Counted from the first letter of the stretch, positions 2,410-57,186 are shown. The stretch is DNA of 64,000 bases from Candidatus Yonathbacteria bacterium (GCA_003483855.1 DMXP01000006.1:24280-88279), one strand, 5' to 3'. Notes: generated by a model from the sequence alone, not told the origin. Program-made: numbers and translations.

Positions 2410-3444
2410 CTAAAGGTATTCTGCCACCTTAACAACATGCTGTACGAGTGTATTCGTGTATCCCATTTCGTTGTCATACCACGCCATTACTTTTACAAGG
2501 TTGCCGTCTACCACGCGCGTGAGGTCAAGGTCCGCGATAGAACCATAGAGCTCACCAACGATATCCGAGGACACAATCGGCTCCTCGCTTACTTTAAAAA
2601 TCCCAGCCCAGCGAGGATCACGCGCAGCGTCACGAAGAATTTGATTTACTTCCTCAACACTCGTATTCCTTTTTGCTATGAATGTTACATCGGCGATAGA
2701 ACCCGCAATCACCGGCACACGAATAGAGATACCGTCAAACTTTCCTTTCAAATCTTTTACAACTTCTGTGACAGAAATAGCCGCGCCAGTTGAAGCAGGT
2801 ACCATATTTGCGGCACCTGCGCGTCCACCGCGAAGGTCTTTGCCTCCTGGACCATCCACAATCTTCTGTGTGCCTGTGTACGCGTGCGTAGTGTTCAAAA
2901 TTGCTTTTTCAATACCAATCGTTTCGTTCAAAATACAAACCACAGGACTTGCCGCATTCGTGGTACACGAAGCATTTGAAGAAATTTTTGCATTTGCTAA
3001 TTCGCCATCGTTGATGCCCATTAGCGCGGTAACACAGGGAACTTCCGGGAGAGACTCGCCTTTCATTGGCGCAGTAATAACTACGCGCTTCGCACCTTGG
3101 TCTAAATGAACCTTTGCGCTTTCTGTGCTTGTATAAAATCCAGTAGACTCAACCACGATATCAATATTGTATTTTGCCCACGGGAGATTGGTTGGTTCTT
3201 TCTCTTGAACGAGCGCAACTTTTTCACCTCCCACAATAAATCCAGGCTCATCGCCACCAACAACCTCCACCTCAAAGTCTGCCTTGCCGTAAGCAGTGTC
3301 ATATTTCAAAAGGTACGCCATATTTGATGGGTCACCGAGGTCGTTCACCACCACAATCTCAAACTCTGGGCGTGTGCGCGCCAATTTATAAAATGCGCGT
3401 CCAATGCGCCCAAACCCGTTAATCGCTACTCGTACTTTTGCCAT
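2410..3444 (-). CDS. gap: Glyceraldehyde-3-phosphate dehydrogenase
   Basis: VAINGFGRIGR...ASCTTN active-site motif; 344 aa. Confidence 0.9.
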   Translation of the reverse strand: MAKVRVAINGFGRIGRAFYKLARTRPEFEIVVVNDLGDPSNMAYLLKYDTAYGKADFEVEVVGGDEPGFIVGGEKVALVQEKEPTNLPWAKYNIDIVVESTGFYTSTESAKVHLDQGAKRVVITAPMKGESLPEVPCVTALMGINDGELANAKISSNASCTTNAASPVVCILNETIGIEKAILNTTHAYTGTQKIVDGPGGKDLRGGRAGAANMVPASTGAAISVTEVVKDLKGKFDGISIRVPVIAGSIADVTFIAKRNTSVEEVNQILRDAARDPRWAGIFKVSEEPIVSSDIVGELYGSIADLDLTRVVDGNLVKVMAWYDNEMGYTNTLVQHVVKVAEYL

Positions 3445-3539
3445 GGTTGATTTTCTTTGAGCGAAGCGAAGTTGAAAATCACCACCCGGTTAAATGACTT
3501 TTTATTAAAAGTCCCTGCTTTGCAGGATTTAACTGGGTA
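3445..3539 (-). promoter_or_regulatory. Conserved structured 5' leader element, copy A, immediately upstream of the gap start
   Basis: About 90% identical to 7037-7134. It has nested inverted repeats (cccRgttaaat...atttaactggg enclosing gactttttaYtaaaagtc and cctgctttgcagg). A second stem (ggtTgattttc/gaaaatcacc) abuts the ATG. Confidence 0.5.
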
Positions 3540-3610
3540 GACGACCCAACTTCGTACCACTCGTTATTTTAATGATTAAAACTATACTGTTATTTTACCA
3601 TACAGAACTA

Positions 3611-3637
3611 AAAAGGCACACATTTGTGTGCTTTTTT
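3611..3637 (-). terminator. Rho-independent terminator downstream of gatB
   Basis: Hairpin gcacaca-ttt-gtgtgc flanked by an A-run and a T-run; the gatB stop lies within the run. Confidence 0.6.
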
Positions 3638-5051
3638 AGTTCAATGCCTCCTCAAACAGCGTTTTGAGCATTGCGGGGTTCCCGCTTCCTTTTGAAGCCT
3701 TCATACCCTGTCCGATGAAAAATTGTAGGAGCGCTGTTTTGCCTGATTTATAGTCGGCAACAACAGTTGGATTTGCTTCAATAATTTCTGCGACCATTTT
3801 TTTGAGCGCCTCAATATCATTTTTCTGAATGAGGCCGTGCTTCTTTGCAATTTCGTGTGGATGTCCACCTTCTGCATACAAAATCGCGAGTGTGTCTTTT
3901 GCTCCACGTGAAGATAGGTCCCCATCTTTAATCATTGTCACGAGGTCGGCAAGTGACTTACCTGTTACTCCACCAATTGACTCAGAACCTTTCATAAGTC
4001 CAACGAGGTCTGATGTAACATAGTTTTCAATAAGCGCAATTGAAGGGCGGTCAACACCGATTGCAGCAATCGCATCTTCAAAAAGCCCGCCAAGTGTTTT
4101 ATCTGCCGTAAACACTTCTGCGTTCTCTGGCTTCACGCCATACTCACGCACGAGGCGCGCGCGCTTCTCCCATGGGAGTTCGGGCATCATCGCCTGTAAA
4201 TTTTCGATTGAAAATTCTGAAATCTCTGAAATTTTTAATTTTGGCAAATCGGGATCAGGGAAATAGCGGTAATCGTGAGCGCTTTCTTTTTTGCGCTGTG
4301 AAAATGTCTTCTGCCCACCTTCATCCCATCCGCGGGTTTCCTGCACAATCTCCCCAGGCCCGCCATCCAAAATTTTTGTCATACGCTCCACCTCGTACGC
4401 AATCGCTCTCTCCACCGAGCGAAACGAGTTTAAATTTTTCACCTCAACTTTCGTGCCAAGCTTGTCTGTCTTTGATATTGAAATATTTGCCTCCACACGC
4501 ATCTCTCCCTTTTCCATATTCGCATCAGATACGCCGAGCGTGCGGAGAAGAAGCTGGAGCTCGCGCGCAAAAGCGCCAGCTTCTTCGGCAGTATGAATCA
4601 CTGGCTTCGTCACGAGCTCCATCAGAGGCACGCCTGCGCGATTGTAATCCACAAGACTTCCTTCACTCCCTTCGTGCGATGAGCTCGCTGTGTCTTCCTC
4701 CAAATGCACACGCTCAATAGCGATGCCATTTAGCATTCCATTTGAAACAAGCGGATATTTGTACTGACTAATTTGATAGCCCTTTGGAATGTCTGGGTAA
4801 AAATAGTTCTTGCGGTCAAACTCGGTAAAGTCTGCGAGGTCGCTCCCAAGCGCCGTGCCTACACGAAGCACGTGATGCACCGCCTGCTTGTTAATCACAG
4901 GCAAAGTCCCCGGGTGCGCCATGCACACAGGGCAAATATTCACATTCGGCTCCGCATTAAACGGGTCATTTGCCGAATTGCAGAACATCTTTGTCTTAGT
5001 TTTTAGCTCGGCGTGAACCTCCAAGCCGACCGTTAGTTTGTATTCACTCAT
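3636..5051 (-). CDS. gatB: Asp/Glu-tRNA(Asn/Gln) amidotransferase subunit B
   Basis: MSEYKLTVGLEVHAELKTKTKMFC...; 471 aa GatB architecture. Confidence 0.9.
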   Translation of the reverse strand: MSEYKLTVGLEVHAELKTKTKMFCNSANDPFNAEPNVNICPVCMAHPGTLPVINKQAVHHVLRVGTALGSDLADFTEFDRKNYFYPDIPKGYQISQYKYPLVSNGMLNGIAIERVHLEEDTASSSHEGSEGSLVDYNRAGVPLMELVTKPVIHTAEEAGAFARELQLLLRTLGVSDANMEKGEMRVEANISISKTDKLGTKVEVKNLNSFRSVERAIAYEVERMTKILDGGPGEIVQETRGWDEGGQKTFSQRKKESAHDYRYFPDPDLPKLKISEISEFSIENLQAMMPELPWEKRARLVREYGVKPENAEVFTADKTLGGLFEDAIAAIGVDRPSIALIENYVTSDLVGLMKGSESIGGVTGKSLADLVTMIKDGDLSSRGAKDTLAILYAEGGHPHEIAKKHGLIQKNDIEALKKMVAEIIEANPTVVADYKSGKTALLQFFIGQGMKASKGSGNPAMLKTLFEEALN

Positions 5052-5062
5052 ATTTTAATATT

Positions 5063-5293
5063 TTATTTCAACCAAAGATTTTGCGGAATACCAGATTGCG
5101 CAATAACTGATTTTAGTGTTCTGGGGTGAATCGATTTTTGCCCGTGATATTGAATATGCGTCTGTCTCACCTTTCCGCCATACGAACCAATGTAGTAAAA
5201 GTGGCTTCCGTGTGTATGAGAATGTTGAAATCCATACTCTTTTAAAAAATCGACTACGCCCTTAAATGTCCAGTTGTTGAGTCCGCGAGGCAT
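5063..5293 (-). CDS. hicA: HicA-like (YcfA) mRNA interferase toxin
   Basis: 76 aa; ...KGVVDFLKEYGF...GSHFYY...KVRQTH...HPRTLKSVIAQSGI fits the HicA/COG1724 pattern. Confidence 0.55.
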   Translation of the reverse strand: MPRGLNNWTFKGVVDFLKEYGFQHSHTHGSHFYYIGSYGGKVRQTHIQYHGQKSIHPRTLKSVIAQSGIPQNLWLK

Positions 5294-5299
5294 AGTTTC

Positions 5300-5701
5300 T
5301 TACGCAAATGCGAGATTAAATTTACCAGAACTTAGAACGTATGGGGATTTTGTCGAGCGTGTATTGCTTCTCTTGACATCACTTGCCTGCGCGCTCTCCC
5401 ACATTTTTTCATACTCAGAGTCAACCGTTTGATTGAGCACGTGGGGGCGCAATTTAGACTTACGCGCGGAGCCGAGGTAGCCAACGATAGCTTCATTTAG
5501 AAGGACGATGGCTTCAATCTGTGATGCACCCTCAACAACGACATTAAACTCAAGCGCCACCGCAAAAAAAGTATCTTTTTCCTTGAATACCACGTATCGC
5601 ACCGACCCTTTTTGTAGAGTATTTTTGAAAGATTTCATATGTTCATAATACCCTAGCGTGGGCACAAAGACAACTTCAATATCTTCGTACTGTACTGTCA
5701 C
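5300..5701 (-). CDS. hicB: HicB-like antitoxin (UPF0150 N-terminal domain), GTG start
   Basis: RYVVFKEKDTFFAVALEFNVVVEGASQIEAIVLLNEAIVGYL resembles the HicB N-domain. Lies directly upstream of hicA. Confidence 0.5.
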   Translation of the reverse strand: MTVQYEDIEVVFVPTLGYYEHMKSFKNTLQKGSVRYVVFKEKDTFFAVALEFNVVVEGASQIEAIVLLNEAIVGYLGSARKSKLRPHVLNQTVDSEYEKMWESAQASDVKRSNTRSTKSPYVLSSGKFNLAFA

Positions 5702-5757
5702 CTAACCCCAAATTTTTCAATACCTTCGTACTGCACTGTCAATAATATTCATCAACT

Positions 5758-6012
5758 TTACTTAAAATTTTTAGCTTTTTCATCCCACGCCTTTTTTTCT
5801 TTTTCCTGTTTCTCAGCGACTTCTTTGAGACGAATATCCTCATCAGTTTTTGGTACTTCACCTCCAAAAAAATACATGAACCCTCCAGCGATAATAACCC
5901 AAAGCCACCAAAGGAAAGGGAAAGTTACCACGAGCCCCCAGATTAAAACCCCACAGATTAGTAATACACCAATAGTACGCATATTATTTTTTAACACTTC
6001 CTTTATCATCAT
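5758..6012 (-). CDS. Small membrane protein, hypothetical
   Basis: 84 aa with a Trp-rich TM segment and a charged C-tail. Confidence 0.45.
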   Translation of the reverse strand: MMIKEVLKNNMRTIGVLLICGVLIWGLVVTFPFLWWLWVIIAGGFMYFFGGEVPKTDEDIRLKEVAEKQEKEKKAWDEKAKNFK

Positions 6013-6055
6013 TCATAGTTTCATTATAAACTACTTTACCCTAAAATCCACTAAA

Positions 6056-7036
6056 TCACACCACCTTCTTCAAAAGTTTCAAAAGTTCGTCTTGAAATAC
6101 TTTCATACATTTGTCGTCCAAAATCGTGATAGTAAACACTTCCGAATGTGGATAGGTTTTCTTCATTGCTACTTCCACTTCATTCACGTGCTCTGGAGTT
6201 ACCATATCTGTTTTGGTGAGAATAATTATCTCGTGCTTTGAAGCCAAGTCTTTATCAAATGCTTCAAGCTCTTTGCGTACAGTTTCGTACACTGCGAGTG
6301 GGTCTTCGTTTTCAAGCGACACCAAATGCGCGAGCATTTTGGTGCGCTTCACATGACGGAGGAATTTATGTCCAAGCCCTTTTCCTTCTGATGCGCCTTC
6401 AATGAGCCCTGGGATATCCGCAATGATAAATCCAAAACAATCGCCCAAGTTTGGCTCAAGTGTGGTGAACGCATAGTCAGCAGTCTTTGCGCTCGCGCGT
6501 GTGAGCGCGTTCAAAAGCGAAGATTTGCCCGCGTTTGGCAAACCCACGAGCCCTATGTCCGCAACAATCTGAAGCTCAACTTTGAAATCTGCTTCTTGCC
6601 CTTTCATTCCAGGCACGTGCTCTTTTGGTGTGCGATTGGTTGATGTCTTAAAATGCTCGTTGCCAAATCCTCCACGCCCTCCTTTTAATACCAAAATCTG
6701 CTGACCTTCATCTAGAAGCTGATACTCAGATCCAGTATCAAGATTCGTCACAATAGAACCAATAGGCAAATCCAAAATAAAATCATCGCCGTTTCTGCCG
6801 TGCAAACTGTCATTGCCACCGTCGCCTGCGCGCTCCGCGAAGAAATCTTTTTGATGGCGATACTTCACAAGGATATGCACGTCGCGAACAGCGCGGATAA
6901 TCATATCTCCGCCCTTTCCACCGTCACCGCCAGAAGGACCAGCAAATTCTTTGCCTTTCTCATGCTTAAGACGCATAACGCCGTTTCCGCCGTCGCCCGC
7001 CTTCATATGCATCGTCATTTCATCTATAAATGCCAT
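6056..7036 (-). CDS. obg: GTPase Obg/CgtA
   Basis: MAFIDEMTMHMKAGDGGNGVMRLKHEKGKEFAGPSGGDGGKGGD (Obg fold) plus G-domain motifs GLPNAGKSSL and DIPG. Confidence 0.9.
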   Translation of the reverse strand: MAFIDEMTMHMKAGDGGNGVMRLKHEKGKEFAGPSGGDGGKGGDMIIRAVRDVHILVKYRHQKDFFAERAGDGGNDSLHGRNGDDFILDLPIGSIVTNLDTGSEYQLLDEGQQILVLKGGRGGFGNEHFKTSTNRTPKEHVPGMKGQEADFKVELQIVADIGLVGLPNAGKSSLLNALTRASAKTADYAFTTLEPNLGDCFGFIIADIPGLIEGASEGKGLGHKFLRHVKRTKMLAHLVSLENEDPLAVYETVRKELEAFDKDLASKHEIIILTKTDMVTPEHVNEVEVAMKKTYPHSEVFTITILDDKCMKVFQDELLKLLKKVV

Positions 7037-7134
7037 GATTGATTTTCTTAATGAGCTTGCGAATTTAGAAAATCAATCACCCAGTTAAATGACTTTTTAC
7101 TAAAAGTCCCTGCTTTGCAGGATTTAACTGGGTA
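7037..7134 (-). promoter_or_regulatory. Conserved structured 5' leader element, copy B, immediately upstream of the obg start
   Basis: Same nested-palindrome element as 3445-3539. The perfect 11-bp stem gattgattttc/gaaaatcaatc abuts the ATG. Confidence 0.5.
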
Positions 7135-7194
7135 AGGTAACTGATTCAATGTCACTTCACTCACTATGTTACTTTGACTATATCACAAAAATTA

Positions 7195-13791: not shown

Positions 13792-16254
13792 CTAGCTCCC
13801 GTGGCACTTTTTGTACTTCTTGCCACTTCCGCACGGACATGGGTCATTCCTGCCGATTTTGTCGGAATGAATTGGCTCTGCGGTTTTCTCAGCCTCTTCC
13901 CCACCGCCTATTTCAATTGCATGCTTCACCACTTCGCGCGCCTTTTCCTCCTCCTTTACGAATGCTCCGGCGCCGATAGCTGGCACAAGGCGGAGAATTT
14001 CATTCTGCACGGATTCTTTCATTTCTCGGAAAAGGCGAAGTCCTTCTTTTTTGTATTCTACAAGGGGGTCACGCTGTCCGTACGCGCGGAGGTTCACAGA
14101 CGATTTCAAATATTCCATCGCGTCTAGGTGTTCCATCCACATCATATCCACGACCTGCAAAATCAAACGCTTCACAGCGTTGTAAAATTCCGCCTCACCA
14201 AGTCCAGCAACTTTTTCCGCAATATTATTTTCAAGAGCAGTGTCTCCAGCGACAATCTCCTCAAGATATGTTTTCGCGGAGTCCGTCCCACCCATTAAAA
14301 TTTCGCGACGCATTCCGTACACATACGCGCGCTGTTTGGTCATCACGTCGTCATACGAAAGCACGTGCTTGCGAGAATCAAAATGAAATCCTTCAATTTT
14401 TTCCTGCGCGGTTTCAAGCGAACGAGAAATCATTTTGTTTTGTATTGCCTCGTCCTCGGGGATGCCAAGCTTGCCCATCATGTTTTTTACCACGTCTGAA
14501 GCGAAGACGCGCATCAAACTGTCCTCCATTGATACGAAAAATTGCGTCTCACCTGGATCGCCTTGGCGTCCCGCGCGACCGCGAAGCTGGTTGTCTATAC
14601 GGCGCGCTTCGTGTCGCTCGGTTCCAAGCACAAAAAGTCCGCCGAGGGATTTTATTTCCTCGTAAAGCTCGGGAGTGCTTGGGTTTCCACCGAGTTTGAT
14701 ATCCACACCGCGACCTGCCATGTTTGTAGCGATGACCACGCTTCCTTTACGACCTGCCTGCGCGATAATTTCGCCCTCGCGTTCGTGGTTTTTTGCGTTC
14801 AAAACCTCGTGTGGCACGCCCTCATTCTTCAAATATTCCGAAAGAAGCTCGTTTTTTTCAATAGACACCGTACCGATGAGCACCGGCTGACCTTTTTCGT
14901 TGAGCTCCTTTACCTTGCGCGCGATTGCCTTGAACTTTCCGTTTTCGGTCTGGAAAATATGGTCCGTGCGGTCTATTCGGGAAACTTTGCGATTTGTAGG
15001 TATTGGAGTTACTTCAAGACCGTACACTTTGTAGAACTCCTCGCTTGATGTTTCGGCGGTTCCGGTCATTCCTGCAAGCTTGCCGTACAGACGAAAGTAA
15101 TTTTGGAATGTTATGGACGCGAAAGTGCGAGATTCTTGCTGGATTTTCACGCCTTCCTTTGCCTCCACCGCTTGATGAAGCCCCTCTGACCAGCGACGCC
15201 CGGGTTGCATGCGTCCTGTAAACTCGTCCACGATAATCACCTCGCCTTCTCGCACCACGTATTCCTTGTCGCGAATAAAAAGCGCCTGCGCGCGAACTGC
15301 GGTTTCCAAATGATGCACGTATTTCACTCCACGCTCTGTGTAAATATTATCAATACCCAAAATTTCTTCAGCTCTGTTGATTCCCTCGTCTGTAAGCTGA
15401 ATAGCTTTTAGTTTTTCATCCACAGTATAGTGCTCTGGAGATTTCAATTTTCCCGCAATGCCAGCAAAAACGGCGTACAAATTTTCCGCATCGCCAGACG
15501 GCGCGGAAATAATGAGCGGTGTACGCGCCTCATCTATTAAAATAGAGTCAATCTCGTCCACGATTGCAAAGTGGTAATCGCGTTGAGCGAGATCGGCGGT
15601 GTTGTACGCGACATTGTCACGAAGATAATCAAAACCGTACTCGTTGTTTGTGCCGTATGTGATGTCCGCGCGATATGCTTCTTGCTTTCCGCATGGACGC
15701 ATAAACTCATGAATGACTTTGAATGACCCAACTTCATCACGCTCCTCATCCTTGTCTTTGTGATTCGGATCGTAGAGATACGACGCGCTATGGTTGAGCA
15801 CCCCCACAGAAAGTCCAAGGAATGAATATATCTGCCCCATCCATGTCGCGTCGCGACGGGAGAGGTAGTCGTTGACCGTGACAACATGCACCCCTTTTCC
15901 TGGGAGCGCGTTTAGATACGCAGGAAGTGTCGCGACAAGAGTTTTTCCTTCGCCAGTCATCATCTCGGCAATTTTCCCCTGATGAAGGGCGATACCTCCC
16001 AAAAGTTGCACATCATAGTGTCGCTGACCAAGTGTTCGGCGAGACGCCTCGCGCACCACGGCAAAAGCCTCTGGGAGGATATCGTCCAAAAGCACGCCTG
16101 ACGCCAAGCGCGAGCGAAATTCCTCTGTTTTTGCGCAGAGCTCCTGGTCGGAGATCGCTTGGAGCGCTGGCTCAAAATCGTTGATTTTCTTCACAAGTGG
16201 CGCGTTTTTACCCGCTGGCCCGCTTCCGGCAAAGATATTTTTCAGAAATGACAT
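13792..16254 (-). CDS. secA: Preprotein translocase ATPase SecA
   Basis: 820 aa with DEAD-motor motifs and the C-terminal zinc-binding [14 protein letters not shown]. Confidence 0.92.
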
Positions 16255-31769: not shown

Positions 31770-32984
31770 ATGTCCAGTATACTACTCTATCATCACCTTG
31801 GCCTCGGCGACCACATCATGTGCCACGGTATTGTTCGTGAATACTGCAAAAAATACGAAAAAGTTGCGATTTTTTGCTTGCCACATAATTACCCTTCAGT
31901 GTCATTCATGTACCGAGACTTAACTAACCTAACCATAATTAAAGGTGGCGACTCAGACGCTCGCAAATTCATAAAGCAAAATGCTTCTGAACCAGAGGAA
32001 TTGAAATACGATGAAATAAAAATTATAGGATTTCAATATCTAAATAAGGGTAGCAATGTCCCGTTAGAGATGCAGTTTTACCGACTCGCAGACATTCCCT
32101 TTAATAAAAAATGGGATAGTTTTTTTATTAAAAGAGATTCCCAAAAAGAACAAGCGCTCTTTGAAAAAGTTGCCCCACAAGGTGATTATGCTTTCATCCA
32201 CGAAGATATCCCTCGAGGGTTCATAATTAACAGAGATCATATTAATAAAGATTACGAAGTTATTGTCGCAAATCAGAGTCACACAAACAATATTATTGAC
32301 TACTGTACTATTATAGAAAGAGCAAAGGAAATTCATGTAATTGATTCTTGTTTTATGTTTTTAATTGACTTCTTGTCATACAATAACCCAGACCAAAAAC
32401 TTTTCGTTCATCGATATTCCAGAGAAAACCACGAGTGGTTGCTTCCCTTTCTCAAAAAAGACTGGCACATCATTATAGACAGGCATGACAAAAAAGAACC
32501 TATTAAGGAAATACTTAGAACACTTTTGGGTGATAGAAATACTATTCTAAGAAAAATTATCCGGCGAATATTCAAGAGAATGAGGTGGGATATGGTTAGG
32601 CCGAGTTCCCCTGATTTAAACGCGCTCATCAAACGATATGTTTATAGAAAATCATTTCTCGCTATCTCTACCAATGATAATAGTGATGATTATATATCTG
32701 TTGCGCAGGACGCTGGTGCAATGAGAGCGAATTCAAGCATGCTAGAAGTAGCAGTACCGGCAGATACTGTATTCTATTCTGGTACATTTCCCAAAAACGG
32801 TGATCTGGGGGCTTTACTAAAAAAGTTACGCCTGCTAACAAAAAATATTATAATATTTCATACAAAAAATTGTGCACCAGAATATCTTGAATCAATGCTT
32901 GTACAAGCTGGATTTGAAACTCGCGAGAAACACGTGTTCCCTTATGAAGTATGTTTCGTCTGCCGAACGGTAACTAAAAAATAA
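31770..32984 (+). CDS. Hypothetical; N-terminal half GT9 (heptosyltransferase)-like, C-terminal domain unknown
   Basis: HHLGLGDHIMCHGIVREY and ...EIHVIDSCFMFLIDFL resemble GT9 motifs. Only plus-strand gene inside the minus-strand operons. Confidence 0.35.
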   Translation: MSSILLYHHLGLGDHIMCHGIVREYCKKYEKVAIFCLPHNYPSVSFMYRDLTNLTIIKGGDSDARKFIKQNASEPEELKYDEIKIIGFQYLNKGSNVPLEMQFYRLADIPFNKKWDSFFIKRDSQKEQALFEKVAPQGDYAFIHEDIPRGFIINRDHINKDYEVIVANQSHTNNIIDYCTIIERAKEIHVIDSCFMFLIDFLSYNNPDQKLFVHRYSRENHEWLLPFLKKDWHIIIDRHDKKEPIKEILRTLLGDRNTILRKIIRRIFKRMRWDMVRPSSPDLNALIKRYVYRKSFLAISTNDNSDDYISVAQDAGAMRANSSMLEVAVPADTVFYSGTFPKNGDLGALLKKLRLLTKNIIIFHTKNCAPEYLESMLVQAGFETREKHVFPYEVCFVCRTVTKK

Positions 32985-32990
32985 CTGGTG

Positions 32991-33761
32991 TTAAATTTCA
33001 CGTAGGTAAAGCGCGTCCTGTATTGTTTTGCTCCTGAGCGTTTTACGCATAAGCAGATCAATTTGGAATTTAGTAAGAAAAAGTATGAACTTAAAGAACC
33101 AGTTTGGTATTTTCTTTTCTGTAAACAAATGAAGGTTTGCTCCATCACTATATAAATTTAGCTTATACTTTTTCGCAATGTATAAAAGTGTCTTAAATGA
33201 ATAAAATGAGATATGCTGTCCATGTTTCAACCCGTAATATTCCCAATCATCTCTTGGGACTTCTTCTGGTAAGAGGAGTGTTGAGAAAAATATATTTTTT
33301 GAAATTTTTAACATCTTTTCTATTTCATTGATTGGAAGATCAAAGTGCTCAAAACATTCAAAGCAAGTAAGTGCTTCTATGTGTTGATTTTTATATTCAA
33401 GTCCTTTCATAAATAAATTTGGCGTGTGCAAATCATAAGTATAAAAATCCAGCCCGTAGTCACGCATCAATCGCGCAAGCATACCGTACCCCCCAGCATA
33501 ATCGAGGAAACTTGCTCGTATATTAAAAAGAAACATGAAGAGAACTAATGTTTTTCGAGATAAGTATACATTGCGAAGCACATATCCTGTATCAGTATCT
33601 GCTATTGGCTCCTGATACGCCTCAGCAAGCCACACAGGATTCCCAACAAACATAAATCCGCACCCACGACATAGATAATATTCGGCATCATAAACCCCCC
33701 TTATTTTCAAGGTTTTCATTAGTAATGCTTGAGACTGACAGATTTTGCATTCCATAATCAA
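32991..33761 (-). CDS. Class I SAM-dependent methyltransferase with N-terminal zinc ribbon
   Basis: CKICQS...CRGCG followed by ...LDYAGGYGMLARL... (SAM-binding motif I). Confidence 0.6.
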   Translation of the reverse strand: MIMECKICQSQALLMKTLKIRGVYDAEYYLCRGCGFMFVGNPVWLAEAYQEPIADTDTGYVLRNVYLSRKTLVLFMFLFNIRASFLDYAGGYGMLARLMRDYGLDFYTYDLHTPNLFMKGLEYKNQHIEALTCFECFEHFDLPINEIEKMLKISKNIFFSTLLLPEEVPRDDWEYYGLKHGQHISFYSFKTLLYIAKKYKLNLYSDGANLHLFTEKKIPNWFFKFILFLTKFQIDLLMRKTLRSKTIQDALYLREI

Positions 33762-33765
33762 TACC

Positions 33766-34662
33766 TCAGCCTAGCAGAGATTTTAATTTTCTAAAAATCC
33801 TAACGAAAATATTTTTAACCAGAAAAGAGCTATAGTTTTTGTCAGCTTCTTTGTTTACCATAATTGAATCTGGGTGAATTATTTTTGAAATTGTGCCAGT
33901 TGGCATTTTACTAAAAATATCATCTGTTTTTGTGTGAGTGGCATTTCCACCAAAACCAATATTCGAAACGAGGTTCACATTCGGGAGAATAGTTATTCCA
34001 TTATTGTCATATATTGAGTATACCAATTGTCCATCCCATGTATCAATTTTGTTCGCGTAAAGCTTGTCAAAAAGATTAAGCCAGTATTTTTGCATTTTCT
34101 TGTCCTTGAATATTTGCGCAATGCGATTGTTTTTTTTGAAATCAGGGTAGCTTTTCATTTCGATGTCGTATTCTTGCCAAGCACGACGCCATGTTGCCCA
34201 TCCCCAAATATGCGGAAAATTTGAAAAATAATAGCTTACATCTCCGTACATTTTTCCAAACTGAAAATTGTCTCCTGAAATCATTTTTACCTTTTCTGTA
34301 TTTCTATATTTACTTAATAATTCCTCACAAAAAGAAAAGAAGGATGGGTCTGGCAAGCAGTCATCTTCCAAAATAACCCCCTCTTCAACATTATCAAAAA
34401 ACCATGTGATTGCGCTGGAAACACCTTTTTTGCAACCTAGATTTTGATCTGAATATTTTCTATATACTTCACACGGCCAATCAATATTTTCTGTTACTTT
34501 TCTTGTCTCTTCACAAAGCTTCGCCTCGCCCTCTCTGTGCACACGTGGTCCATCGGCAGCAATATATAATTTTGCGGGCTTGATAGCTCGAATAGCTTCA
34601 AAAACCTGCTTTGCTACATCAGGACGATTGAAAACAATAAAAAGAACTGGTGTTTGATACAT
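33766..34662 (-). CDS. GT-A fold glycosyltransferase, family uncertain
   Basis: LFIVFNRPDV...KLYIAADGPR...ILEDDCLP...WGWATWRRAW. Confidence 0.45.
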   Translation of the reverse strand: MYQTPVLFIVFNRPDVAKQVFEAIRAIKPAKLYIAADGPRVHREGEAKLCEETRKVTENIDWPCEVYRKYSDQNLGCKKGVSSAITWFFDNVEEGVILEDDCLPDPSFFSFCEELLSKYRNTEKVKMISGDNFQFGKMYGDVSYYFSNFPHIWGWATWRRAWQEYDIEMKSYPDFKKNNRIAQIFKDKKMQKYWLNLFDKLYANKIDTWDGQLVYSIYDNNGITILPNVNLVSNIGFGGNATHTKTDDIFSKMPTGTISKIIHPDSIMVNKEADKNYSSFLVKNIFVRIFRKLKSLLG

Positions 34663-34664
34663 TT

Positions 34665-35435
34665 TTATTTTTTAATAAACCAGAAACATCCACACCCCCA
34701 ATTTTGTTCTTTAACCATATTTTTGTCAGCATTTGATATAAGTCCATATTTTTTGTAATCATCAGGAACTAAAGAAAATTCTTTGATGTCCATATCTGGG
34801 AACATGCTCACAACTTGCTCATACGAATAAATTCGGTGAGCGTTAAATTCTATCTTTGGTTTTCCAACGGGGACTACGAACACAAGCGAACCACCACTTT
34901 TTACCACCCTGGAGAGCTCCTTTGATGCCTTGATGTCCCCCGTAGAATCGAGACGATCTCCATACCTTCCAAGTCCGATATGCTCGACTGTGTGCATACA
35001 CGAAATTGATTCAATACTATTATCAATAAACGGCAATCTCATTAAGTCCCCCCTCTTGCACTCCAGATTATCAAACCTTATTTCAGCAGGCCGATAATCG
35101 TAAAAATCTACAGGAATAAATGCTGACATCATTGTAGAAAAAGTAACCGTGGAGGATATGTCTATGTGTTTGGTGGGATTTATTTTTTTTACTACCCGAC
35201 AAGCCCACGCGGGATGATAAACATAGTGGGGTTCAAATCCAGTTGTGGCGGTGTTGTCTAAAAGGCATGGAAATAAATCCGTAATATTTGTAGTGAATCT
35301 TTTGTCATCCTCTAGAAGTTTTTTGAAAATAAAATACTCATTAAAAAAGGACGGGTATCTAATCATTTTTTTAACTAAATGATAAATTGCTACTGCAATA
35401 GAATACTGAGCAAGAGTTTTTCTTATTTTTTCCAT
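34665..35435 (-). CDS. DUF268-family putative SAM-dependent methyltransferase (paralogue B)
   Basis: See paralogue A. Confidence 0.55.
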   Translation of the reverse strand: MEKIRKTLAQYSIAVAIYHLVKKMIRYPSFFNEYFIFKKLLEDDKRFTTNITDLFPCLLDNTATTGFEPHYVYHPAWACRVVKKINPTKHIDISSTVTFSTMMSAFIPVDFYDYRPAEIRFDNLECKRGDLMRLPFIDNSIESISCMHTVEHIGLGRYGDRLDSTGDIKASKELSRVVKSGGSLVFVVPVGKPKIEFNAHRIYSYEQVVSMFPDMDIKEFSLVPDDYKKYGLISNADKNMVKEQNWGCGCFWFIKK

Positions 35436-36580
35436 AATTTTTGAATAAATTGTACTATTTTAAAAGCAGTCAGGTTTCTAGTGTACCATTTATTAAGTAT
35501 TTTTGACTCTGTTGCTAACCCATTCAATATTTCCATTACGTGTTTTTCAATTAAATTTGATTCTGAACCAGACAGACCGACACTAGATCTTAATAATGAA
35601 AAATAAACAATTTTGGAATCTATTTTATTTTCGAGTAGTCTTTTACATACATCTAATGCCTCACTGTATTTTTTCTGCCTATAATTTACTATAAAATTAT
35701 CATATAACTCAGAAGGACGGTCGCTCGCCGTAACTTTTAAATCCTGCGCGACAAGTAAATTCTTTTCTGAATATAAGTCCTGTAGCAGAATTGAAAGATT
35801 TTCCTTCAAACTGGAATTTTTAAAGACATCATACGCAAGAATTTCTTTTTTTGCGTATGAGGAAAGTAGCCCCCAAATATCCTCAATTGCAAGGTAATAA
35901 TTAACTGAAAAATTCCCTTTATTAAATTCTCTTTCAAAATAGGATGGCTCACTACTATTTTGTCTGTGGTAGAAAAAAGTATCTGGGCAAACAAGAACAA
36001 GGTTCCCCGCCGAAAGATACCTCATTTCGAAACTCTGAGTGTCAAAACCGTGGTGTTCCGGATATTGAGATGTCTTCAAAAATGATTCCTTAGTGAAAAG
36101 AAAATTATCTAAAAGAATTCCGCTTCTATCAAAAATATTATCAATAATAATGGGCTTACCTAAAATGGTATTAAAATGGGGGGTAAACATTTTCTTACTC
36201 TTGGAATGGAAAAAACGCCTCTCGTAAAAAACTACTCCATCCGCCTTTTTCTCTAATAAAAAATGTACCATTTCTCTCAGAGAATTTGGATCAAGTATAT
36301 TATCGCTATCTAAGCAAAAAATGAGTTCCCCCTTTGAATTTTTTATACCAGTATTCCTTGCTGCTCCGCCACCTTTATTTTTATCATGGTAAAAAAGTTT
36401 TATTTCTGAATGTCTATCAGCAAGCTCCTGCATCACTTCCCTAGTCGCATCAGTTGACCCATCATCTACCATTACTATTTCAAAATTATCCAATCCTCCA
36501 GCAAAACAAGACCCTACCGCCTCTTCGAGGGTGTCTTGGCAATTATAGCAAGGCATTATGATTGAAAGAGTTGGTTTCAT
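35423..36580 (-). CDS. Family-2 glycosyltransferase
   Basis: LSIIMPCYNCQDTLEEAV...VMVDDGSTD...KNKGGGAARNTG. Confidence 0.8.
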   Translation of the reverse strand: MKPTLSIIMPCYNCQDTLEEAVGSCFAGGLDNFEIVMVDDGSTDATREVMQELADRHSEIKLFYHDKNKGGGAARNTGIKNSKGELIFCLDSDNILDPNSLREMVHFLLEKKADGVVFYERRFFHSKSKKMFTPHFNTILGKPIIIDNIFDRSGILLDNFLFTKESFLKTSQYPEHHGFDTQSFEMRYLSAGNLVLVCPDTFFYHRQNSSEPSYFEREFNKGNFSVNYYLAIEDIWGLLSSYAKKEILAYDVFKNSSLKENLSILLQDLYSEKNLLVAQDLKVTASDRPSELYDNFIVNYRQKKYSEALDVCKRLLENKIDSKIVYFSLLRSSVGLSGSESNLIEKHVMEILNGLATESKILNKWYTRNLTAFKIVQFIQKLWKK

Positions 36581-36587
36581 TCAGTGT

Positions 36588-37481
36588 TTAATCTTTTATG
36601 TTCCTAATCTTATCAGTCCAGTAATCCATATACAACGGTTCATAATTTGAGTTCTTTTTGATACTTTCAAATTTATCCGCCAAATCCTTTTCACTTAGAT
36701 TGTCTAGCTCGTGCCAATCTCTAACTGACCACAAAGGAATCCCAATTTTTTCAAAATAATCTATAGTTATAGAACTTTTAACTATTGGCACAGAACCTAT
36801 ATACAAAGCATCCCATGTTCTGTGTCCCTCTACACATGACCCAGGTGGTGAAGCTATAAATTTATATGTGGCAAGGAAGGGTAAATATTGAAAAAAATTC
36901 ATCCACCTTTTGTAAGTATCGGCTAATGGATTCACCTTAAGGACATCCATGGCTTGCTGTCTTTCTCCTAAATTGTTAACTACAGTAAACCCATAAAAAA
37001 TACGGTCCATCTTAGCAATATTTTTCATTATAACTCTATTAAAAATAGATGGTATTCCTAAAACATAGTAATGTTTATTTTCTATCCCAAGAGGTATCGG
37101 GACTACTTTTGAATTAGCTATTAGAACATTTATTCCGTACCATTTTATAATCTTGTCATCGGCCATACTAAATATTTCTTGGTCTATGACCGCATCACCA
37201 TTGTGAGTTACTAAAACATAAGGTGATTCTATCTTGGGATGAACCTCAGTAAGGAATTTTTTAATGTTACTATCTCCAACAAAAATAACATCTTTGTCTC
37301 TGACGCTACCTACATCAAAATCCTTCCGCAAATCATCATAAATATGATCTGCAAAATTGCGAAAACCATCTCCCGTTATATACGGATAACTTGATGGCCT
37401 AGGGTTAGATGAGTATCTTATAAGAATACGTCCTGCGATGCGATATATGCGAAATATTAGGTCAAATAATTTTTGCTTCAT
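36588..37481 (-). CDS. Exostosin/GT47-like glycosyltransferase
   Basis: C-terminal YKFIASPPGSCVEGHRTWDALYIGSVPIV matches the GT47 motif s.FCL.P.G....S.R..EA...GCvPVi. Confidence 0.45.
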   Translation of the reverse strand: MKQKLFDLIFRIYRIAGRILIRYSSNPRPSSYPYITGDGFRNFADHIYDDLRKDFDVGSVRDKDVIFVGDSNIKKFLTEVHPKIESPYVLVTHNGDAVIDQEIFSMADDKIIKWYGINVLIANSKVVPIPLGIENKHYYVLGIPSIFNRVIMKNIAKMDRIFYGFTVVNNLGERQQAMDVLKVNPLADTYKRWMNFFQYLPFLATYKFIASPPGSCVEGHRTWDALYIGSVPIVKSSITIDYFEKIGIPLWSVRDWHELDNLSEKDLADKFESIKKNSNYEPLYMDYWTDKIRNIKD

Positions 37482-38365
37482 AATCCTTTTAGCATTAAAT
37501 TTATGTGGTGCGACAACTTATTGTAAAAAATTACAATCATAATTAATTTTTTATAAATAAACTTAGGAATATATTCTCTTATCTTTGTTCTGAAAAAAAA
37601 CTTCAAATATGGGACCTCAGCTAGTGGAGCTACGGGCCTAAGTGCTCTTTTAGGATACAGCCCTCTTGATTGGAGTGAATAACCTTCACCACCGTCATCA
37701 ATTGAAGCAAAGAGTTCATATTTAGGGATTGCATAATGAATAGGGAGCCAGCTCGTATCTCCTCCCCCTTTTTCGAAATCAAAAGGACAATATTTTGAAT
37801 ATCCCCTTAATATCGGTGGTCCAATTTTAATTATTTTATTAAATAACGATATCAAAAAAATGCCGGCCATACTAATAATGTATGTCTTTTCTATATCTGT
37901 TTCTTTTAGCGATTCTTTATCAAGCAAGAATGTGGAAATATTTTTATACTCTCTTTTTTGTAGAGCGCTATATGGTTCTATCAATTTTCCAGAATTCCAC
38001 CATGAGTAGCACAGATATTCTGAGCAAGCATCCTTCATTTCTTTTAGGATTTCTTCGTATTTTTTTGTATCTACTAAATTTAGATGGTCCTCAATCCAAA
38101 AGAAAACAAAGTCGGTATTGATATCACCTAACATCAAACGAGTATCGCTGAACCACCCCTTCTCGCTCTCTAACATATATGGGATCAACTTATCACCTAA
38201 ATTATCATGTAAAAAGAATAACGTATCAAATTTATATTTTCCCCTTACGTTAATTACCCACTTTTCTGCTTCAATATCCTTGAATGACAAAAAGGAATCC
38301 TTCATCCTCAAGAATCTCTCTTCGTCATTTATATAAAAATTAGCGAATATAGTTAGGGTTGCCAT
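37478..38365 (-). CDS. Hypothetical protein (glycan-cluster member), AT-rich
   Basis: 295 aa, no recognisable motif. Translationally coupled to both neighbours. Confidence 0.45.
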   Translation of the reverse strand: MATLTIFANFYINDEERFLRMKDSFLSFKDIEAEKWVINVRGKYKFDTLFFLHDNLGDKLIPYMLESEKGWFSDTRLMLGDINTDFVFFWIEDHLNLVDTKKYEEILKEMKDACSEYLCYSWWNSGKLIEPYSALQKREYKNISTFLLDKESLKETDIEKTYIISMAGIFLISLFNKIIKIGPPILRGYSKYCPFDFEKGGGDTSWLPIHYAIPKYELFASIDDGGEGYSLQSRGLYPKRALRPVAPLAEVPYLKFFFRTKIREYIPKFIYKKLIMIVIFYNKLSHHINLMLKGL

Positions 38366-38368
38366 AAT

Positions 38369-39514
38369 TTACCAAAAAGTTGCCTGCGGATTTATATTCT
38401 CAAGGATATCTTTTTTTATTTCTTCATCATAACCTCCCGCCTTCAAAATCACAGTTACTGGACCCTTGTTTTTGAGCACCTTAGGCGATTCTATCACAAA
38501 ACTAGTACCGTACAATCTTTTACCATGTTTAATTGGGCTATTATCTAAAATAGCGATTATTTTATCAGTTTTGAGGCCGAATTGGATTAATGTCTGTGAA
38601 AATATATGTGCCCCAAATAAATATACTGGGTGATCACTTTTTTCTATTAAACTGTTCAGGACGGCAATCATTTCGAGGTGGTAGTTTATATAACCCATAA
38701 ACACCTTCTTGTACTCATTGTACTTGTTCTCTATTGAAACTAGATCAGACGAAACATCAGCTTTTTCTGTAGCATAAAAGATACTATGAGGGTCACCGTA
38801 ATATTGCTTTTCCAAAACAATAAAACCATTTTTTTCTAGTAGGTATTCAGTAAAGTATTCAGTTAGAAAAACCGTATGCTCAAAATTTAGGCAATTTGTC
38901 CAATTCAGTTTGAGCATTGGAAGAAGATTAGGGAAGGTGAAGATATGCCTATCTCCTTTTTTCATGAACTTTGAGATGTGCTCAATGAAAACTATCGGAT
39001 TATATGTGTGCTCAAATACATGCGAATGAATAATTGTGTCAAAATGTTCATCAATAACAAATTTATCATCAAACCAAGCTTTGATTACTCTTATTTGCGG
39101 ATCATCTATGTGCTCAGGATTCGGTTCAACTATTGTCCATTTTATATTTGAATCAAGAGTACGATAATTTTTTGCAATTTGGTCGTGGGCTCCACCTATC
39201 TCTAAAATATTTTTTGACTTATATTTATACAGAAATTGCGCGAAAGCAGTATAATGCTCTTTCCATATTTTCCCAGTGCCATCATTGTGTTGGTTCCTAT
39301 ATAAAATTTCCAGCGGGATTAATTTTCGTAGCTGAATCAATCCAGTGTCCTTACAAATATCCCAAACCATATCAGCTACAATATCTTCATCCTGCGGGGC
39401 ATCAACACACCCCATAAACACCGGAAAATTCTCAAACGTGTGTAAGTGCTCAAGATTCTCCTTGCCCGTAATCAGGCTTTTTGTTCTTTCATTAAACGTA
39501 TCAAGTTTTTTCAT
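38369..39514 (-). CDS. NDP-hexose C-methyltransferase-like (TylCIII/TcaB9-type SAM MTase with C-terminal domain)
   Basis: ...ILEIGGAHDQI... SAM motif plus a C-terminal ...YLFGAHIFSQT...ILDNSPIKHGK domain typical of sugar C-methyltransferases. Confidence 0.5.
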   Translation of the reverse strand: MKKLDTFNERTKSLITGKENLEHLHTFENFPVFMGCVDAPQDEDIVADMVWDICKDTGLIQLRKLIPLEILYRNQHNDGTGKIWKEHYTAFAQFLYKYKSKNILEIGGAHDQIAKNYRTLDSNIKWTIVEPNPEHIDDPQIRVIKAWFDDKFVIDEHFDTIIHSHVFEHTYNPIVFIEHISKFMKKGDRHIFTFPNLLPMLKLNWTNCLNFEHTVFLTEYFTEYLLEKNGFIVLEKQYYGDPHSIFYATEKADVSSDLVSIENKYNEYKKVFMGYINYHLEMIAVLNSLIEKSDHPVYLFGAHIFSQTLIQFGLKTDKIIAILDNSPIKHGKRLYGTSFVIESPKVLKNKGPVTVILKAGGYDEEIKKDILENINPQATFW

Positions 39515-39524
39515 ACACCGTTAC

Positions 39525-39917
39525 CTACTTTTGATTGTGTTCGCTTTCAATCTTTCCATCAGGTCTTTGTGTGTCATCCTCAATACGAACAACATCATCA
39601 ACTTCTGGTGTGGAAACCTCCTGTAGAATAATGTCAGTTATCGCAATAACTCGATGCTTTTTTGGTGGGGGTACATTAAAAAAATCTCCTGCTTTCATTT
39701 GAAATTTCTCCACGATACCTTCATCATTTTCTAGCCAAACTTCTGCTTCACCCTCTATAATATAGTTGGTTTCTCTTTTTTTACTATGGTACTGGAAGCT
39801 CGTTCTTGTGCCTGCATTTATATAAATGCGCTTATAGCAATAGGAATCGTTTAGCTCAAGCCAAACTTCTTTACCCCACGGTTTTGAGACCTCTTTGAAC
39901 GGATTATTCTTGTACAT
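39525..39917 (-). CDS. Cupin-domain protein (phosphomannose-isomerase-type cupin)
   Basis: PWGKEVWL...Y.KRIYINAGTRTSFQYHSKKRE; 130 aa. Confidence 0.55.
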   Translation of the reverse strand: MYKNNPFKEVSKPWGKEVWLELNDSYCYKRIYINAGTRTSFQYHSKKRETNYIIEGEAEVWLENDEGIVEKFQMKAGDFFNVPPPKKHRVIAITDIILQEVSTPEVDDVVRIEDDTQRPDGKIESEHNQK

Positions 39918-40923
39918 AGTGATTAATTACATCTGATATGATACTTATAATTGACTCTTTTATGTCCTCACGCTTCGCCAGTTCTTCAATAAGTAGAGCG
40001 TATTCTGGTGAGGCAAAATGATAATGCCCAGCAATAATAGAGCATAACATTTTATTGTCAGGAGTATTTTTATTCATCCATTTTTTCCACTTGCCACCTT
40101 GATAAACTTTTTCCAGGAAATCATCTAGTGGGATTCCATAAACAAGACATTTTGCTATCACAATTTGTGTTTGAATAACACCAAGCTGTGGAGCTATATT
40201 TACAGCATCGACAATTCCACCCCTCAGCTTAATTTCGTCCTTAGTAAGATAGTCTGCGTTATGCTCCTTTAGTTTAAGTCCTTTGCTCTTAAGCATTCTT
40301 GATACACTCTCAACAAATGGCTTATTAAATGACCCAGCCTGATTAATTTCCTTTATTACAGTACCTGTCTGGACTACATAAAATTCTGGGTCACAGAAAC
40401 TCTTAAAAAAATCAATCTCCCTCTCCCACTCTGCGATATTTGGAAGACTATAATTTGTCCCAGTATTCTCGTCTGTTCCTATTTCAATTTGTATGGTTGG
40501 CTTTAAATCCATGCAGTGCAAAATTGCTTTTTTAGTTGCCTCTAACCTCTCGCCATTTGTTCCTTTAAAATGGCAAAAATCTATATGAATTAAATCAAAA
40601 CCATTCTTAATATCATCCTCAATTGTCGAGTATGTATCTGTAATATCGTAGTTACCATTAAACCCCGGGCCACAGTGGTCTCGACAGATTTTAACCTCAG
40701 CATTTGGATTTTGATTCTTCATCTCACCTACAAATTCCATATATTCTTTAGTCGTCCAATTGTTTACATACCCACCAGAATAATCAACCTGATTTTTAGA
40801 AGCGATAAGCATCAACGGTTTGCGATTGAAATGGGAATACCTAAATACAGCCTCTATGATCTCTGGGCTCATTGGCCCAAGCGCTAAGGAAACTAGATTT
40901 TTATTGTTTTTAACAGGTATCAT
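39904..40923 (-). CDS. GatZ/KbaZ-family protein (tagatose-bisphosphate aldolase accessory / ketose-6-phosphate epimerase-like)
   Basis: ...LMLIASKNQVDYSGGYV...CRDHCGP... aligns with GatZ ...[21 protein letters not shown]...GGDHLGP. Confidence 0.5.
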   Translation of the reverse strand: MIPVKNNKNLVSLALGPMSPEIIEAVFRYSHFNRKPLMLIASKNQVDYSGGYVNNWTTKEYMEFVGEMKNQNPNAEVKICRDHCGPGFNGNYDITDTYSTIEDDIKNGFDLIHIDFCHFKGTNGERLEATKKAILHCMDLKPTIQIEIGTDENTGTNYSLPNIAEWEREIDFFKSFCDPEFYVVQTGTVIKEINQAGSFNKPFVESVSRMLKSKGLKLKEHNADYLTKDEIKLRGGIVDAVNIAPQLGVIQTQIVIAKCLVYGIPLDDFLEKVYQGGKWKKWMNKNTPDNKMLCSIIAGHYHFASPEYALLIEELAKREDIKESIISIISDVINHYVQE

Positions 40924-40941
40924 TATTGTGACATTTTATCA

Positions 40942-43919: not shown

Positions 43920-44021
43920 TTTAAGTTGATGGCCACCACCATTTCGTCAAAGTAAGCATTAAATGAGAATTTAATAATTAGCCGATAAATACTTGTCCTA
44001 ACATATTTAATGTTGACAATT

Positions 44022-45572: not shown

Positions 45573-45662
45573 TTTTGAAAGTATACCATGTCATTAAACT
45601 TGAGGCATCGGCTTGAACAGGCTCCATGAAACCAAAAGAAATGCTAGAATACGGAGAACATC

Positions 45663-46430: not shown

Positions 46431-46475
46431 AAAAACCCGACAAAAAATCTGTCGGGTTTTTATTAAGACTTAGAA

Positions 46476-47420: not shown

Positions 47421-47568
47421 TTTGTTTAACCCCTTTCAATTAAATAGCCTCGGTAAAATGTAGTCAGATTGGCAAAATTCAGCCCCATTACACATATGTG
47501 AGAAATTGCTCATATTCTCAATTCCTGCCTTAATATACATTATTTTTGAATAATAGTAAGATGTACAG

Positions 47569-57173: not shown

Positions 57174-57186
57174 CGCCCCCGTGTTT

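Follow-up and report, generated by a model that had tools for sequence, protein, structure and literature searches.

We have identified a structured palindromic element in the leaders of two unrelated housekeeping genes, gap (2410-3444) and obg (6056-7036), both encoded on the minus strand of a 64,000-nt stretch of contig DMXP01000006.1 of Candidatus Yonathbacteria bacterium (the whole of this stretch is referred to below as the window). The element belongs to an apparently undescribed family, of which 21 distinct copies were collected from public genomes, metagenomes and Obg look-ups, all of them from Paceibacteria-type Patescibacteria, ultra-small groundwater bacteria of the candidate phyla radiation (CPR). 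Compensatory base changes preserve its fold, its last paired base falls on the A of the start codon, and its core behaves as a small insertion element. The interpretation that we favour, with a probability of about 0.45, is that an insertion-type nested palindrome has been retained in gene leaders, where it would act as RNA and gate the start of translation through a trans-acting factor.

As proposed in the initial annotation of this DNA, both copies are present in minus-strand, i.e. gene-sense, orientation and abut start codons; they occupy the leaders of gap (3444-3563) and obg (7036-7166). Exactly two occurrences of a 32-nt core were found in the 64 kb (none expected from shuffles); a 57-nt core is 96% identical between the copies, and the remainder of the ~100 nt only ~70%. 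Read on the sense strand, each copy consists of an upstream segment, a perfect three-way junction of 55 nt (the family core measures 55-65 nt) and, without a spacer, a hairpin that reaches the start codon and is called here the start hairpin. The basal helix of the junction (ACCCAGUUAAAU/AUUUAAC(N)GGGU, where N is Y in the window copies) contains one unpaired A and encloses two inner hairpins, CCUGC-AAA-GCAGG (5 bp) and GACUUUU-ARUA-AAAAGUC (7 bp with a 4-nt loop), joined by zero linker nucleotides. The outer repeat and the linker-free hairpins had been recognised previously, with the arms of the second hairpin misplaced by one base. The terminal inverted repeat (ACCCAGTTAAAT / ATTTAACNGGGT, 11-12 bp) is sequence-invariant and the element is non-coding; in the two window copies the basal repeat is perfect at obg and has one mismatch at gap (A.C in the sense strand, G.T in the plus strand). 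The stem of the start hairpin is likewise perfect at obg (UGAUUGAUUUUC/GAAAAUCAAUCA) and carries one bulged A at gap (UGGUGAUUUUC/GAAAAUCAACCA), in agreement with the earlier description; its 3' arm (GAAAAUCAAUCA or GAAAAUCAACCA) terminates on the A of the ATG in both copies, and one A-U to G-C exchange between the two second stems is compensatory. Folded as sense RNA, the copies form stable structures (-33.4 and -39.3 kcal/mol; z = -6.3 and -8.0). A terminator scan flagged hairpin 1 as an intrinsic terminator, which is an artefact of the nesting, since what looks like a "U tract" is the 5' arm of hairpin 2, which is paired. The start hairpin is not followed by a free U tract either, and the element does not have the form of an intrinsic terminator or attenuator.

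At both genes the element sits downstream of an extended -10 box and upstream of the ATG. The obg box is conserved in element-free relatives (L004, L005 and L046), as is the gap box, TGnTAAAAT, together with the downstream sequence "atagttttaat" (L004, L007, L046 and L048). Since the same boxes are kept in relatives lacking the element, the promoter is not part of the repeat, and the earlier suggestion of a portable promoter cassette can be set aside. We infer that the repeat forms part of a 120-130-nt 5' untranslated region (UTR) transcribed from each gene's own extended -10 promoter. Behind the same boxes in element-free relatives the leaders are 20-35 nt long and A/U-rich, and the other leaders of the source genome are short, A/U-rich and unstructured. 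A loose Shine-Dalgarno (SD)-like 4-mer precedes 9 of 60 window genes, which is about our own chance estimate, and the SD signal is not used by this genome. In all 12 distinct co-oriented copies found by pattern the ATG lies 45-51 nt beyond the junction, and in each of them the 3' arm of the start hairpin ends on the A of the ATG; this register was seen in seven gene families (obg, gap, ndk, atpD, recA, a SET-domain protein and a pilin). The structure thus includes the initiation region, as in translational operators. The first 75 nt past the junction are predicted to fold with about -7 to -16 kcal/mol in co-oriented copies, and the start hairpin is A/U-rich and bulged, i.e. a weak hairpin on the initiation region of the kind that characterises RNA thermometers. 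Occlusion of the start region by a 5' UTR, one of the roles first proposed, would fit the location between -10 box and ATG and the lack of SD sites.

A pattern scan over 185,579 species genomes detected four copies in three metagenome-assembled genomes of Paceibacterota: L001 (obg), L003 (obg and gap) and L002, where a type IV secretion system (T4SS) pilin-like gene stands behind the element. A degenerate second pattern, in which the basal helix was fixed and the hairpins were free, was run on metagenomes and returned 28 loci, i.e. 21 real ones (13 distinct) and seven false positives in coding sequences, five of the latter deriving from a single phage coding sequence. Orthologue look-ups with Obg added L050 (obg) and L043 (gap), neither of which was ascertained via a DNA pattern. 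The wider search and the covariance model recommended in the initial annotation have thus yielded 21 distinct copies with strong covariation. The source genome contributes two copies in ~76 kb (the window and ~12 kb of the same contig): neither covariance model R1 with filters off nor a relaxed pattern revealed further copies in the window, and none was present in the ~12 kb beyond it. Single pattern matches were found in contigs of 84-784 kb. This low copy number fits a small target set better than a proliferating repeat; the search patterns miss variants with other inner hairpins, so that the true number may be higher. Among the viral contigs scanned there was no true copy, only the phage coding-sequence false positive, and weak model matches at L004 1296, L005 74, L020 6983 and L055 13503 proved to be ordinary terminators or coding sequence. 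Rfam 15 at gathering thresholds gave no match in the 64-kb window, and at E <= 10 the region 3380-3660 produced terminator-like and microRNA chance matches, none above 22 bits. Text searches of the published literature returned no prior description of the element.

The pairing is well supported by variation within the family. In 19 junctions 94% of the cells were paired, compared with 34-54% when the partners were slid, and six of the seven pairs of hairpin 2 showed compensatory changes. Seventeen full units aligned on the covariance model likewise had 94% of cells paired (41-57% with partners slid) and compensatory changes in 20 of 34 pairs (hairpin 1, 4/5; hairpin 2, 5/7; start hairpin, 11/12), a count to be read with the caveat that this alignment was fitted to the model; the observed covariation values lay above those of all 500 shuffles. 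The re-alignment was made because RNAalifold, applied to a plain MAFFT alignment, missed the start hairpin through indels. The basal helix behaves differently: none of its 10 pairs covaried, and seven of its base pairs were fixed by the search pattern. The flanking CCC/GGG pairs lie outside the pattern and are still conserved, and in the protein-found L043 and L050 the basal helix is identical. In CCCAG the A never varies and is mostly unpaired, facing C in nine, G in seven and U in three of the 19 junctions. The loop of the start hairpin, which had been regarded as free, holds a motif, YUCGY-N3-5-RCUC, that is kept in 17/17 units, reversed ones included, as well as in both protein-found copies; at gap this loop is in addition complementary to 3539-3563. 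The inner hairpins are free to change in sequence and length while their pairing persists. This is best seen in L043, the closest relative of the window, whose gap leader (13990-14102) has both inner hairpins swapped for unrelated ones of 12 bp and 7 bp with the basal helix, loop motif and ATG register all unchanged, which implies that the search patterns missed part of the family. In L050 three pairs are compensated. The junction itself has zero unpaired nucleotides, and its inner loops are of 3-5 nt and variable.

The view that selection acts on the pairing, and that the two copies are not a recent duplication, is upheld by orthologous leaders that keep the element. Among obg orthologues the start hairpin segment is 79-96% identical and the junction 72-91% (the differences being loops and compensated pairs), compared with 45-63% at third codon positions and 33-74% in the upstream leader. 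Flanks specific to obg are common to the copies of the window, L001, L003 and L050, and flanks specific to gap to those of the window, L003, L031 and L043 (the gap coding DNA of L031 is 75-81% identical to that of the other gap loci). These shared locus-specific flanks indicate that the obg and gap paralogue copies predate the species concerned. Identical junction variants, loops included, also occur in unrelated contexts, L036 (nrdA/nrdB) matching L050 (obg), and L019 (recA) matching L024 (ndk), which suggests copying or gene conversion, and not solely compensatory evolution in place.

The junction module behaves as a small insertion element, a property overlooked in the initial annotation. 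Within the aromatic-amino-acid permease gene of Staskawiczbacteria it constitutes a clean in-frame insertion of 63 nt, or 21 codons (YPVKSSEAGASVKQKLFNYWV), flanked by YKKI and GGK. It is missing in ~120 homologues, and an orthologous site that is empty was identified (aaaaaatc/ggtgg, compared with aaaaaatt-63 nt-ggtgg when filled). The junction alone is found in frame inside two unrelated membrane-protein open reading frames (ORFs; L013 6193-6255, L021 and L025; L038 3141-3205), which both encode ..PVKS...LFN.. from the conserved helix arms, and in the permease ORF a G-C to A-U exchange was achieved by one non-synonymous and one synonymous change. Presence is patchy, and in close relatives the obg copy, the gap copy or the two together may be missing. 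At obg, four close pairs differ in this respect: the window and L043 (Obg identity 92%), L001 and L048 (94%), L003 and L005 (90%), and L050 and L004 (88%), the first of each pair carrying the element. The obg gene of L043 has a different 170-nt spacer instead. In the element-free gap leaders of L004 (14178-14207) and L046 (12490-12515), ATTTAACC directly follows the conserved "atagttttaatca", and the segment missing from them is flanked in the window by the direct repeat TCATT, which suggests a deletion remnant, i.e. loss rather than independent gain. Discrete filled and empty sites (the permease gene; presence or absence at obg and gap) and terminal inverted repeats without coding capacity are features of miniature inverted-repeat transposable elements (MITEs) and of elements like the Rickettsia palindromic elements (RPE). 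Two others were missing: neither the permease site nor the obg and gap leaders show a visible target-site duplication, and many near-identical copies per genome were not found.

Folding of whole leaders predicts two alternative states. In the closed state the junction and start hairpin form, and positions -12 to +1 are paired; in the open state the 5' arm and loop of the start hairpin are taken up by the upstream segment, so that the basal helix is prolonged into a rod and the start becomes accessible. For the complete gap leader, the fold of lowest energy is one with the upstream pairing, in which the start is not occluded. The predicted probability that positions -12..+3 are open is 0.003 for the window obg copy and 0.78 for the window gap copy, and extends from <0.001 to 0.80 over all copies. 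According to a forced fold, opening of the obg start region would cost ~3.6 kcal/mol, and the two folds are separated by 0-6 kcal/mol. RNAduplex assigned the upstream pairing -19.6 kcal/mol at obg (z = -3.6) and -22.4 kcal/mol at gap (z = -3.8, both against shuffles). This pairing is significant in 5/15 units (window gap, L003 gap with z = -5.3, window obg, L002 and L026) and absent in others; in 11/15 the sense strand pairs more strongly than the antisense strand. A comparison of start-region accessibility across the window genes was not robust, as its 90-nt frame truncates the element, and it was not used.

From these data the following mechanism may be proposed. The core module would have entered the genomes by insertion, and the window copies, which are old and retained at the same loci in other species, would act in cis as RNA by limiting or gating initiation. 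Because the genome is without SD sites and its leaders are otherwise unstructured, the start hairpin, which takes up the last 11-12 leader nucleotides and the A of the AUG, should limit access of the 30S subunit to the start codon. The upstream segment (at gap, and more weakly at obg) could compete for the 5' arm and loop of this hairpin and so free the start. A putative trans-acting factor would probably make contact with the invariant basal helix, with its unpaired A and with the conserved loop motif YUCGY..RCUC; it is more probably a protein than a metabolite and would set the balance of the two states.

Several observations weigh against gating of initiation by the leader RNA. Both the transcribed strand and the 5' end of the transcript are ones that we infer, and the junction with its hairpin is more stable as antisense RNA in 15/17 units, largely because the unpaired A faces C. 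Counts of G.U versus A.C favour the sense strand weakly, and the strand assignment rests on gene context, not on fold energies. About half of the copies show no significant upstream pairing, and its conservation among obg orthologues is poor. A junction without unpaired nucleotides offers no obvious ligand pocket, and the set of genes has no clear metabolic theme. Three units are antisense to both of their neighbours (nusB-NUDIX/rnc, nrdA/nrdB and nusA); these and the in-ORF copies mean that the fold persists where gating of a start codon is impossible. The four close pairs show that the element is dispensable at obg. Furthermore, all copies but two were found by DNA patterns that fix 7 bp of the basal helix, and the fitted alignment qualifies the compensatory count as noted above.

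The strongest competitor is a selfish or neutral palindromic insertion element of RPE, MITE or REP type, the leader copies of which would be tolerated passengers; the nested hairpins and fixed terminal repeat would then be kept for a transposase or recombinase that recognises a folded single strand. The clean permease insertion with its empty site, the second in-frame copy in the unrelated membrane protein of L038, the occurrence of both orientations, the patchiness among close relatives, the junction variants shared by unrelated contexts and the invariant 11-12-bp terminal repeat would all be expected of such an element. It is harder to reconcile with a copy number as low as two in ~76 kb and one pattern match in a 784-kb contig, with the lack of a visible target-site duplication at filled and empty sites, and with viral contigs free of true copies. 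The obg and gap copies are, moreover, old paralogues with locus-specific flanks and far more conserved than synonymous sites, and random insertion would not be expected to place the second hairpin in exact register with the ATG in seven gene families. For the leader copies we prefer, tentatively, regulators to tolerated passengers, which we regard as rather unlikely. A role in RNA processing or stability, in which the upstream segment, basal helix and stacked inner hairpin make a near-continuous duplex of 20-35 bp that serves as an RNase III substrate or as a protective 5' structure, would set mRNA half-life rather than initiation and work in either orientation. The rod-like extended fold is indeed the minimum-energy structure in most full leaders, and the fold forms on both strands, which would explain the reversed copies. 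One of the latter is directly upstream of rnc, the gene of RNase III, and another upstream of nusA; the rnc and nusA leaders are RNase III targets in E. coli. RNase III, however, needs no fixed helix sequence, so that the invariant helix and loop motif are left unexplained. About half of the copies have a weak extended duplex or none, and a role in processing would not call for so precise a pairing with the ATG. We consider such a role quite improbable.

A classical metabolite riboswitch, with the junction as aptamer for a nucleotide or energy ligand and the start hairpin and anti-sequestor as expression platform, would account for the preponderance of nucleotide and energy enzymes among the downstream genes (obg, ndk, atpD, gap, recA, nrdB), for two alternative folds of similar energy, and for a 5' UTR structure supported by covariation. 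The conserved positions, however, lie in a Watson-Crick helix and not in a pocket, the junction having no unpaired nucleotides; the sequence of the 3-5-nt hairpin loops varies, L043 shows that the two inner hairpins can be exchanged entirely, and copies also stand reversed and in ORFs, all of which renders a riboswitch very unlikely. Least probable of all, to our mind, is a site that acts as duplex DNA or in recombination (the operator of a dimeric repressor, or an integron attC-like or dif-like site). The consensus words of attC are GTTRRRY and RYYYAAC, which GTTAAAT and ATTTAAC match, and an interior that is variable yet structured recalls the variable terminal structure of attC. As the inner hairpins change in length the half-sites come to lie 31-48 bp apart, a spacing incompatible with fixed phasing on B-DNA, and this argues against the protein operator on duplex DNA that the initial annotation had considered. 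The compensatory changes of the hairpins require intrastrand pairing. As for attC, the order GTTAAAT ... ATTTAAC, found on both strands, is the reverse of RYYYAAC ... GTTRRRY, with the loop placed between GTTAAAT (3' end) and ATTTAAC (5' end), and attC was rejected for this reversed order. The sites also lie in 5' leaders of core genes, downstream of promoters and not at the 3' ends of cassettes. T-box or tRNA-like elements, the hammerhead and other ribozymes were also dismissed, since there are no junction nucleotides, no Rfam match and no matching gene set.

Table 1. Coordinates of the leader features at obg and gap and of the neighbouring terminator.
Feature	Position	Strand	Description and basis
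obg extended -10 box	7177-7185	minus	TGaTATAGT; promoter scan (TG + TATAGT); not part of the element
obg upstream leader segment	7134-7166	minus	UAGUGAGUGAAGUGACAUUGAAUCAGUUACCUU; predicted partner of the start hairpin's 5' arm and loop in the alternative "open" fold
obg perfect three-way junction	7079-7133	minus	fold, covariation, covariance model R1 (84.6 bits, E = 8e-22)
obg basal helix	7122-7133 with 7079-7090	minus	
obg hairpin 1	7109-7121	minus	
obg hairpin 2	7091-7108	minus	
obg putative start-occluding hairpin	7036-7079	minus	covariance model R2 (114.8 bits)
obg start hairpin, 5' arm	7068-7079	minus	
obg start hairpin, loop	7048-7067	minus	contains UUCGCAAGCUCA
obg start hairpin, 3' arm	7036-7047	minus	last base is the A of the ATG (7036)
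gap extended -10 box	3592-3600	minus	TGgTAAAAT; read from the sequence; not part of the element
gap upstream segment	3539-3563	minus	CGAGUGGUACGAAGUUGGGUCGUCU; putative anti-sequestor, complementary to 5' arm and loop of the start hairpin
gap three-way junction	3484-3538	minus	fold; R1 (83.4 bits, E = 2e-21)
gap basal helix	3527-3538 with 3484-3495	minus	A.C mismatch 3534/3488
gap hairpin 1	3514-3526	minus	
gap hairpin 2	3496-3513	minus	
gap putative start-occluding hairpin	3444-3484	minus	R2 (100.3 bits)
gap start hairpin, 5' arm	3474-3484	minus	
gap start hairpin, loop	3456-3473	minus	contains CUUCGCUUCGCUCA
gap start hairpin, 3' arm	3444-3455	minus	last base is the A of the ATG (3444)
Bidirectional terminator hairpin	3606-3641		between gatB and the gap promoter; A and U runs on either side; terminator scan

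The two loci belong to a synteny block, MYG1-obg-(toxin/antitoxin)-gatB-gap-rpiB-rpe, and the order from MYG1 to rpe is typical for Yonathbacteria/Nomurabacteria-like Paceibacteria. The terminator hairpin listed in the table gave only weak terminator-like small RNA matches; it delimits the gap transcription unit on the 5' side and lies outside the element. The spacers between obg and gatB and between gatB and gap are a hot spot in which toxin-antitoxin cassettes vary between relatives: the window has HicA plus a partner (5063-5701), and relatives carry RelB/YafQ or UPF0150/HicA (L004 11015-11904 and 13595-14129; L005 12860-13510). A partial second copy of the 5' coding end of gap is present in L031 (536-601), ~560 nt upstream of the real gap start. 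Neither tRNA nor tmRNA genes were found in the window, nor was any rRNA gene. Elsewhere in the window, the region 32000-48000 has a G+C content of 0.35-0.38, compared with 0.43-0.46 in the remainder, and may represent an acquired island or a cell-surface gene cluster. A 68-nt direct repeat (50734-50801 and 51807-51874; 99% identical, 1073 nt apart) brackets a plus-strand ORF (50869-51795), and its second copy overlaps the 3' end of a minus-strand GT4 glycosyltransferase gene (51809-52705). At 55224-58185 a TrwB/TraG-like coupling protein adjoins a Fic/RhuM protein; T4SS-pilin genes occur in relatives.

The element family provides an example of a structured nucleic acid that is specific to one CPR lineage and is placed on the start codons of essential housekeeping genes without SD pairing. 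Our text searches of the literature turned up almost nothing on gene regulation in Patescibacteria (CPR), and no riboswitch or leader motif described for them. If gating of initiation were true, the element would offer a handle on translation control in CPR, on the factor that reads it, and a natural cassette for engineered control. A more far-reaching version, which we consider improbable, is a mobile "translation gate", i.e. an insertion-competent RNA cassette that installs start-codon occlusion on core genes (obg, gap, ndk, atpD, recA and others) of CPR bacteria without SD sites and is read by a dedicated factor via the invariant basal helix and the loop motif; it would amount to a mobile-element-derived, genome-wide post-transcriptional regulon in CPR. 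A small palindromic insertion element kept for a long time in leaders also bears on the origin of cis-regulatory RNAs, and the family could be submitted to Rfam.

It is instructive to compare the element with known systems. With protein-binding translational operators of bacterial leaders (those of ribosomal proteins, e.g. the S15 three-way-junction mimic, and the thrS operator) it shares a structured 5' UTR at or overlapping the initiation region, a helix of fixed sequence that is probably recognised together with its unpaired nucleotide, peripheral hairpins that vary, and a proposed occlusion of the start. It differs from them in preceding many unrelated genes and not the gene of the binding protein itself, in occurring also reversed and inside ORFs, and in a junction without unpaired nucleotides. 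RPE, MITEs, Correia, ERIC, BOX and REP/REPIN elements are likewise small nested palindromes that are non-coding, end in inverted repeats, occur in either orientation and are patchily distributed; like the leader copies, by our reading, they are transcribed along with neighbouring genes, and the in-frame insertion in ORFs is a trait of RPE; unlike these, our element has a very low copy number, no visible target duplication and no REP GTAG/CGTC head, and it shows long orthologous retention under purifying selection and an accessory hairpin in register with the start codon. Riboswitches and orphan candidates resemble it in having a covarying 5' UTR fold in front of several genes and a putative start-sequestering hairpin, for which upstream pairing is predicted to compete in some copies, but the element is without a conserved unpaired pocket, its inner hairpins are replaceable, and its genes have no coherent pathway theme. 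RNA thermometers (fourU, ROSE) likewise place a weak, A/U-rich, bulged hairpin on the initiation region; here, however, an SD to be masked is lacking, the genes are connected with neither heat shock nor virulence, and the junction and loop motif would be superfluous. The likeness to integron attC sites lies in 7-nt words fitting GTTRRRY/RYYYAAC and in an interior conserved in structure and not in sequence, whereas the word order is reversed, L boxes, the extrahelical-base pattern and an integrase context are missing, and the position is 5' of core genes. Comparisons with Rfam families, attC, intrinsic terminators and the classical riboswitch pocket were thus negative, and the definition of a MITE applies in part only. 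In its operation the element resembles translational operators and sequestering platforms, and in its population behaviour it resembles elements of the RPE/MITE type.

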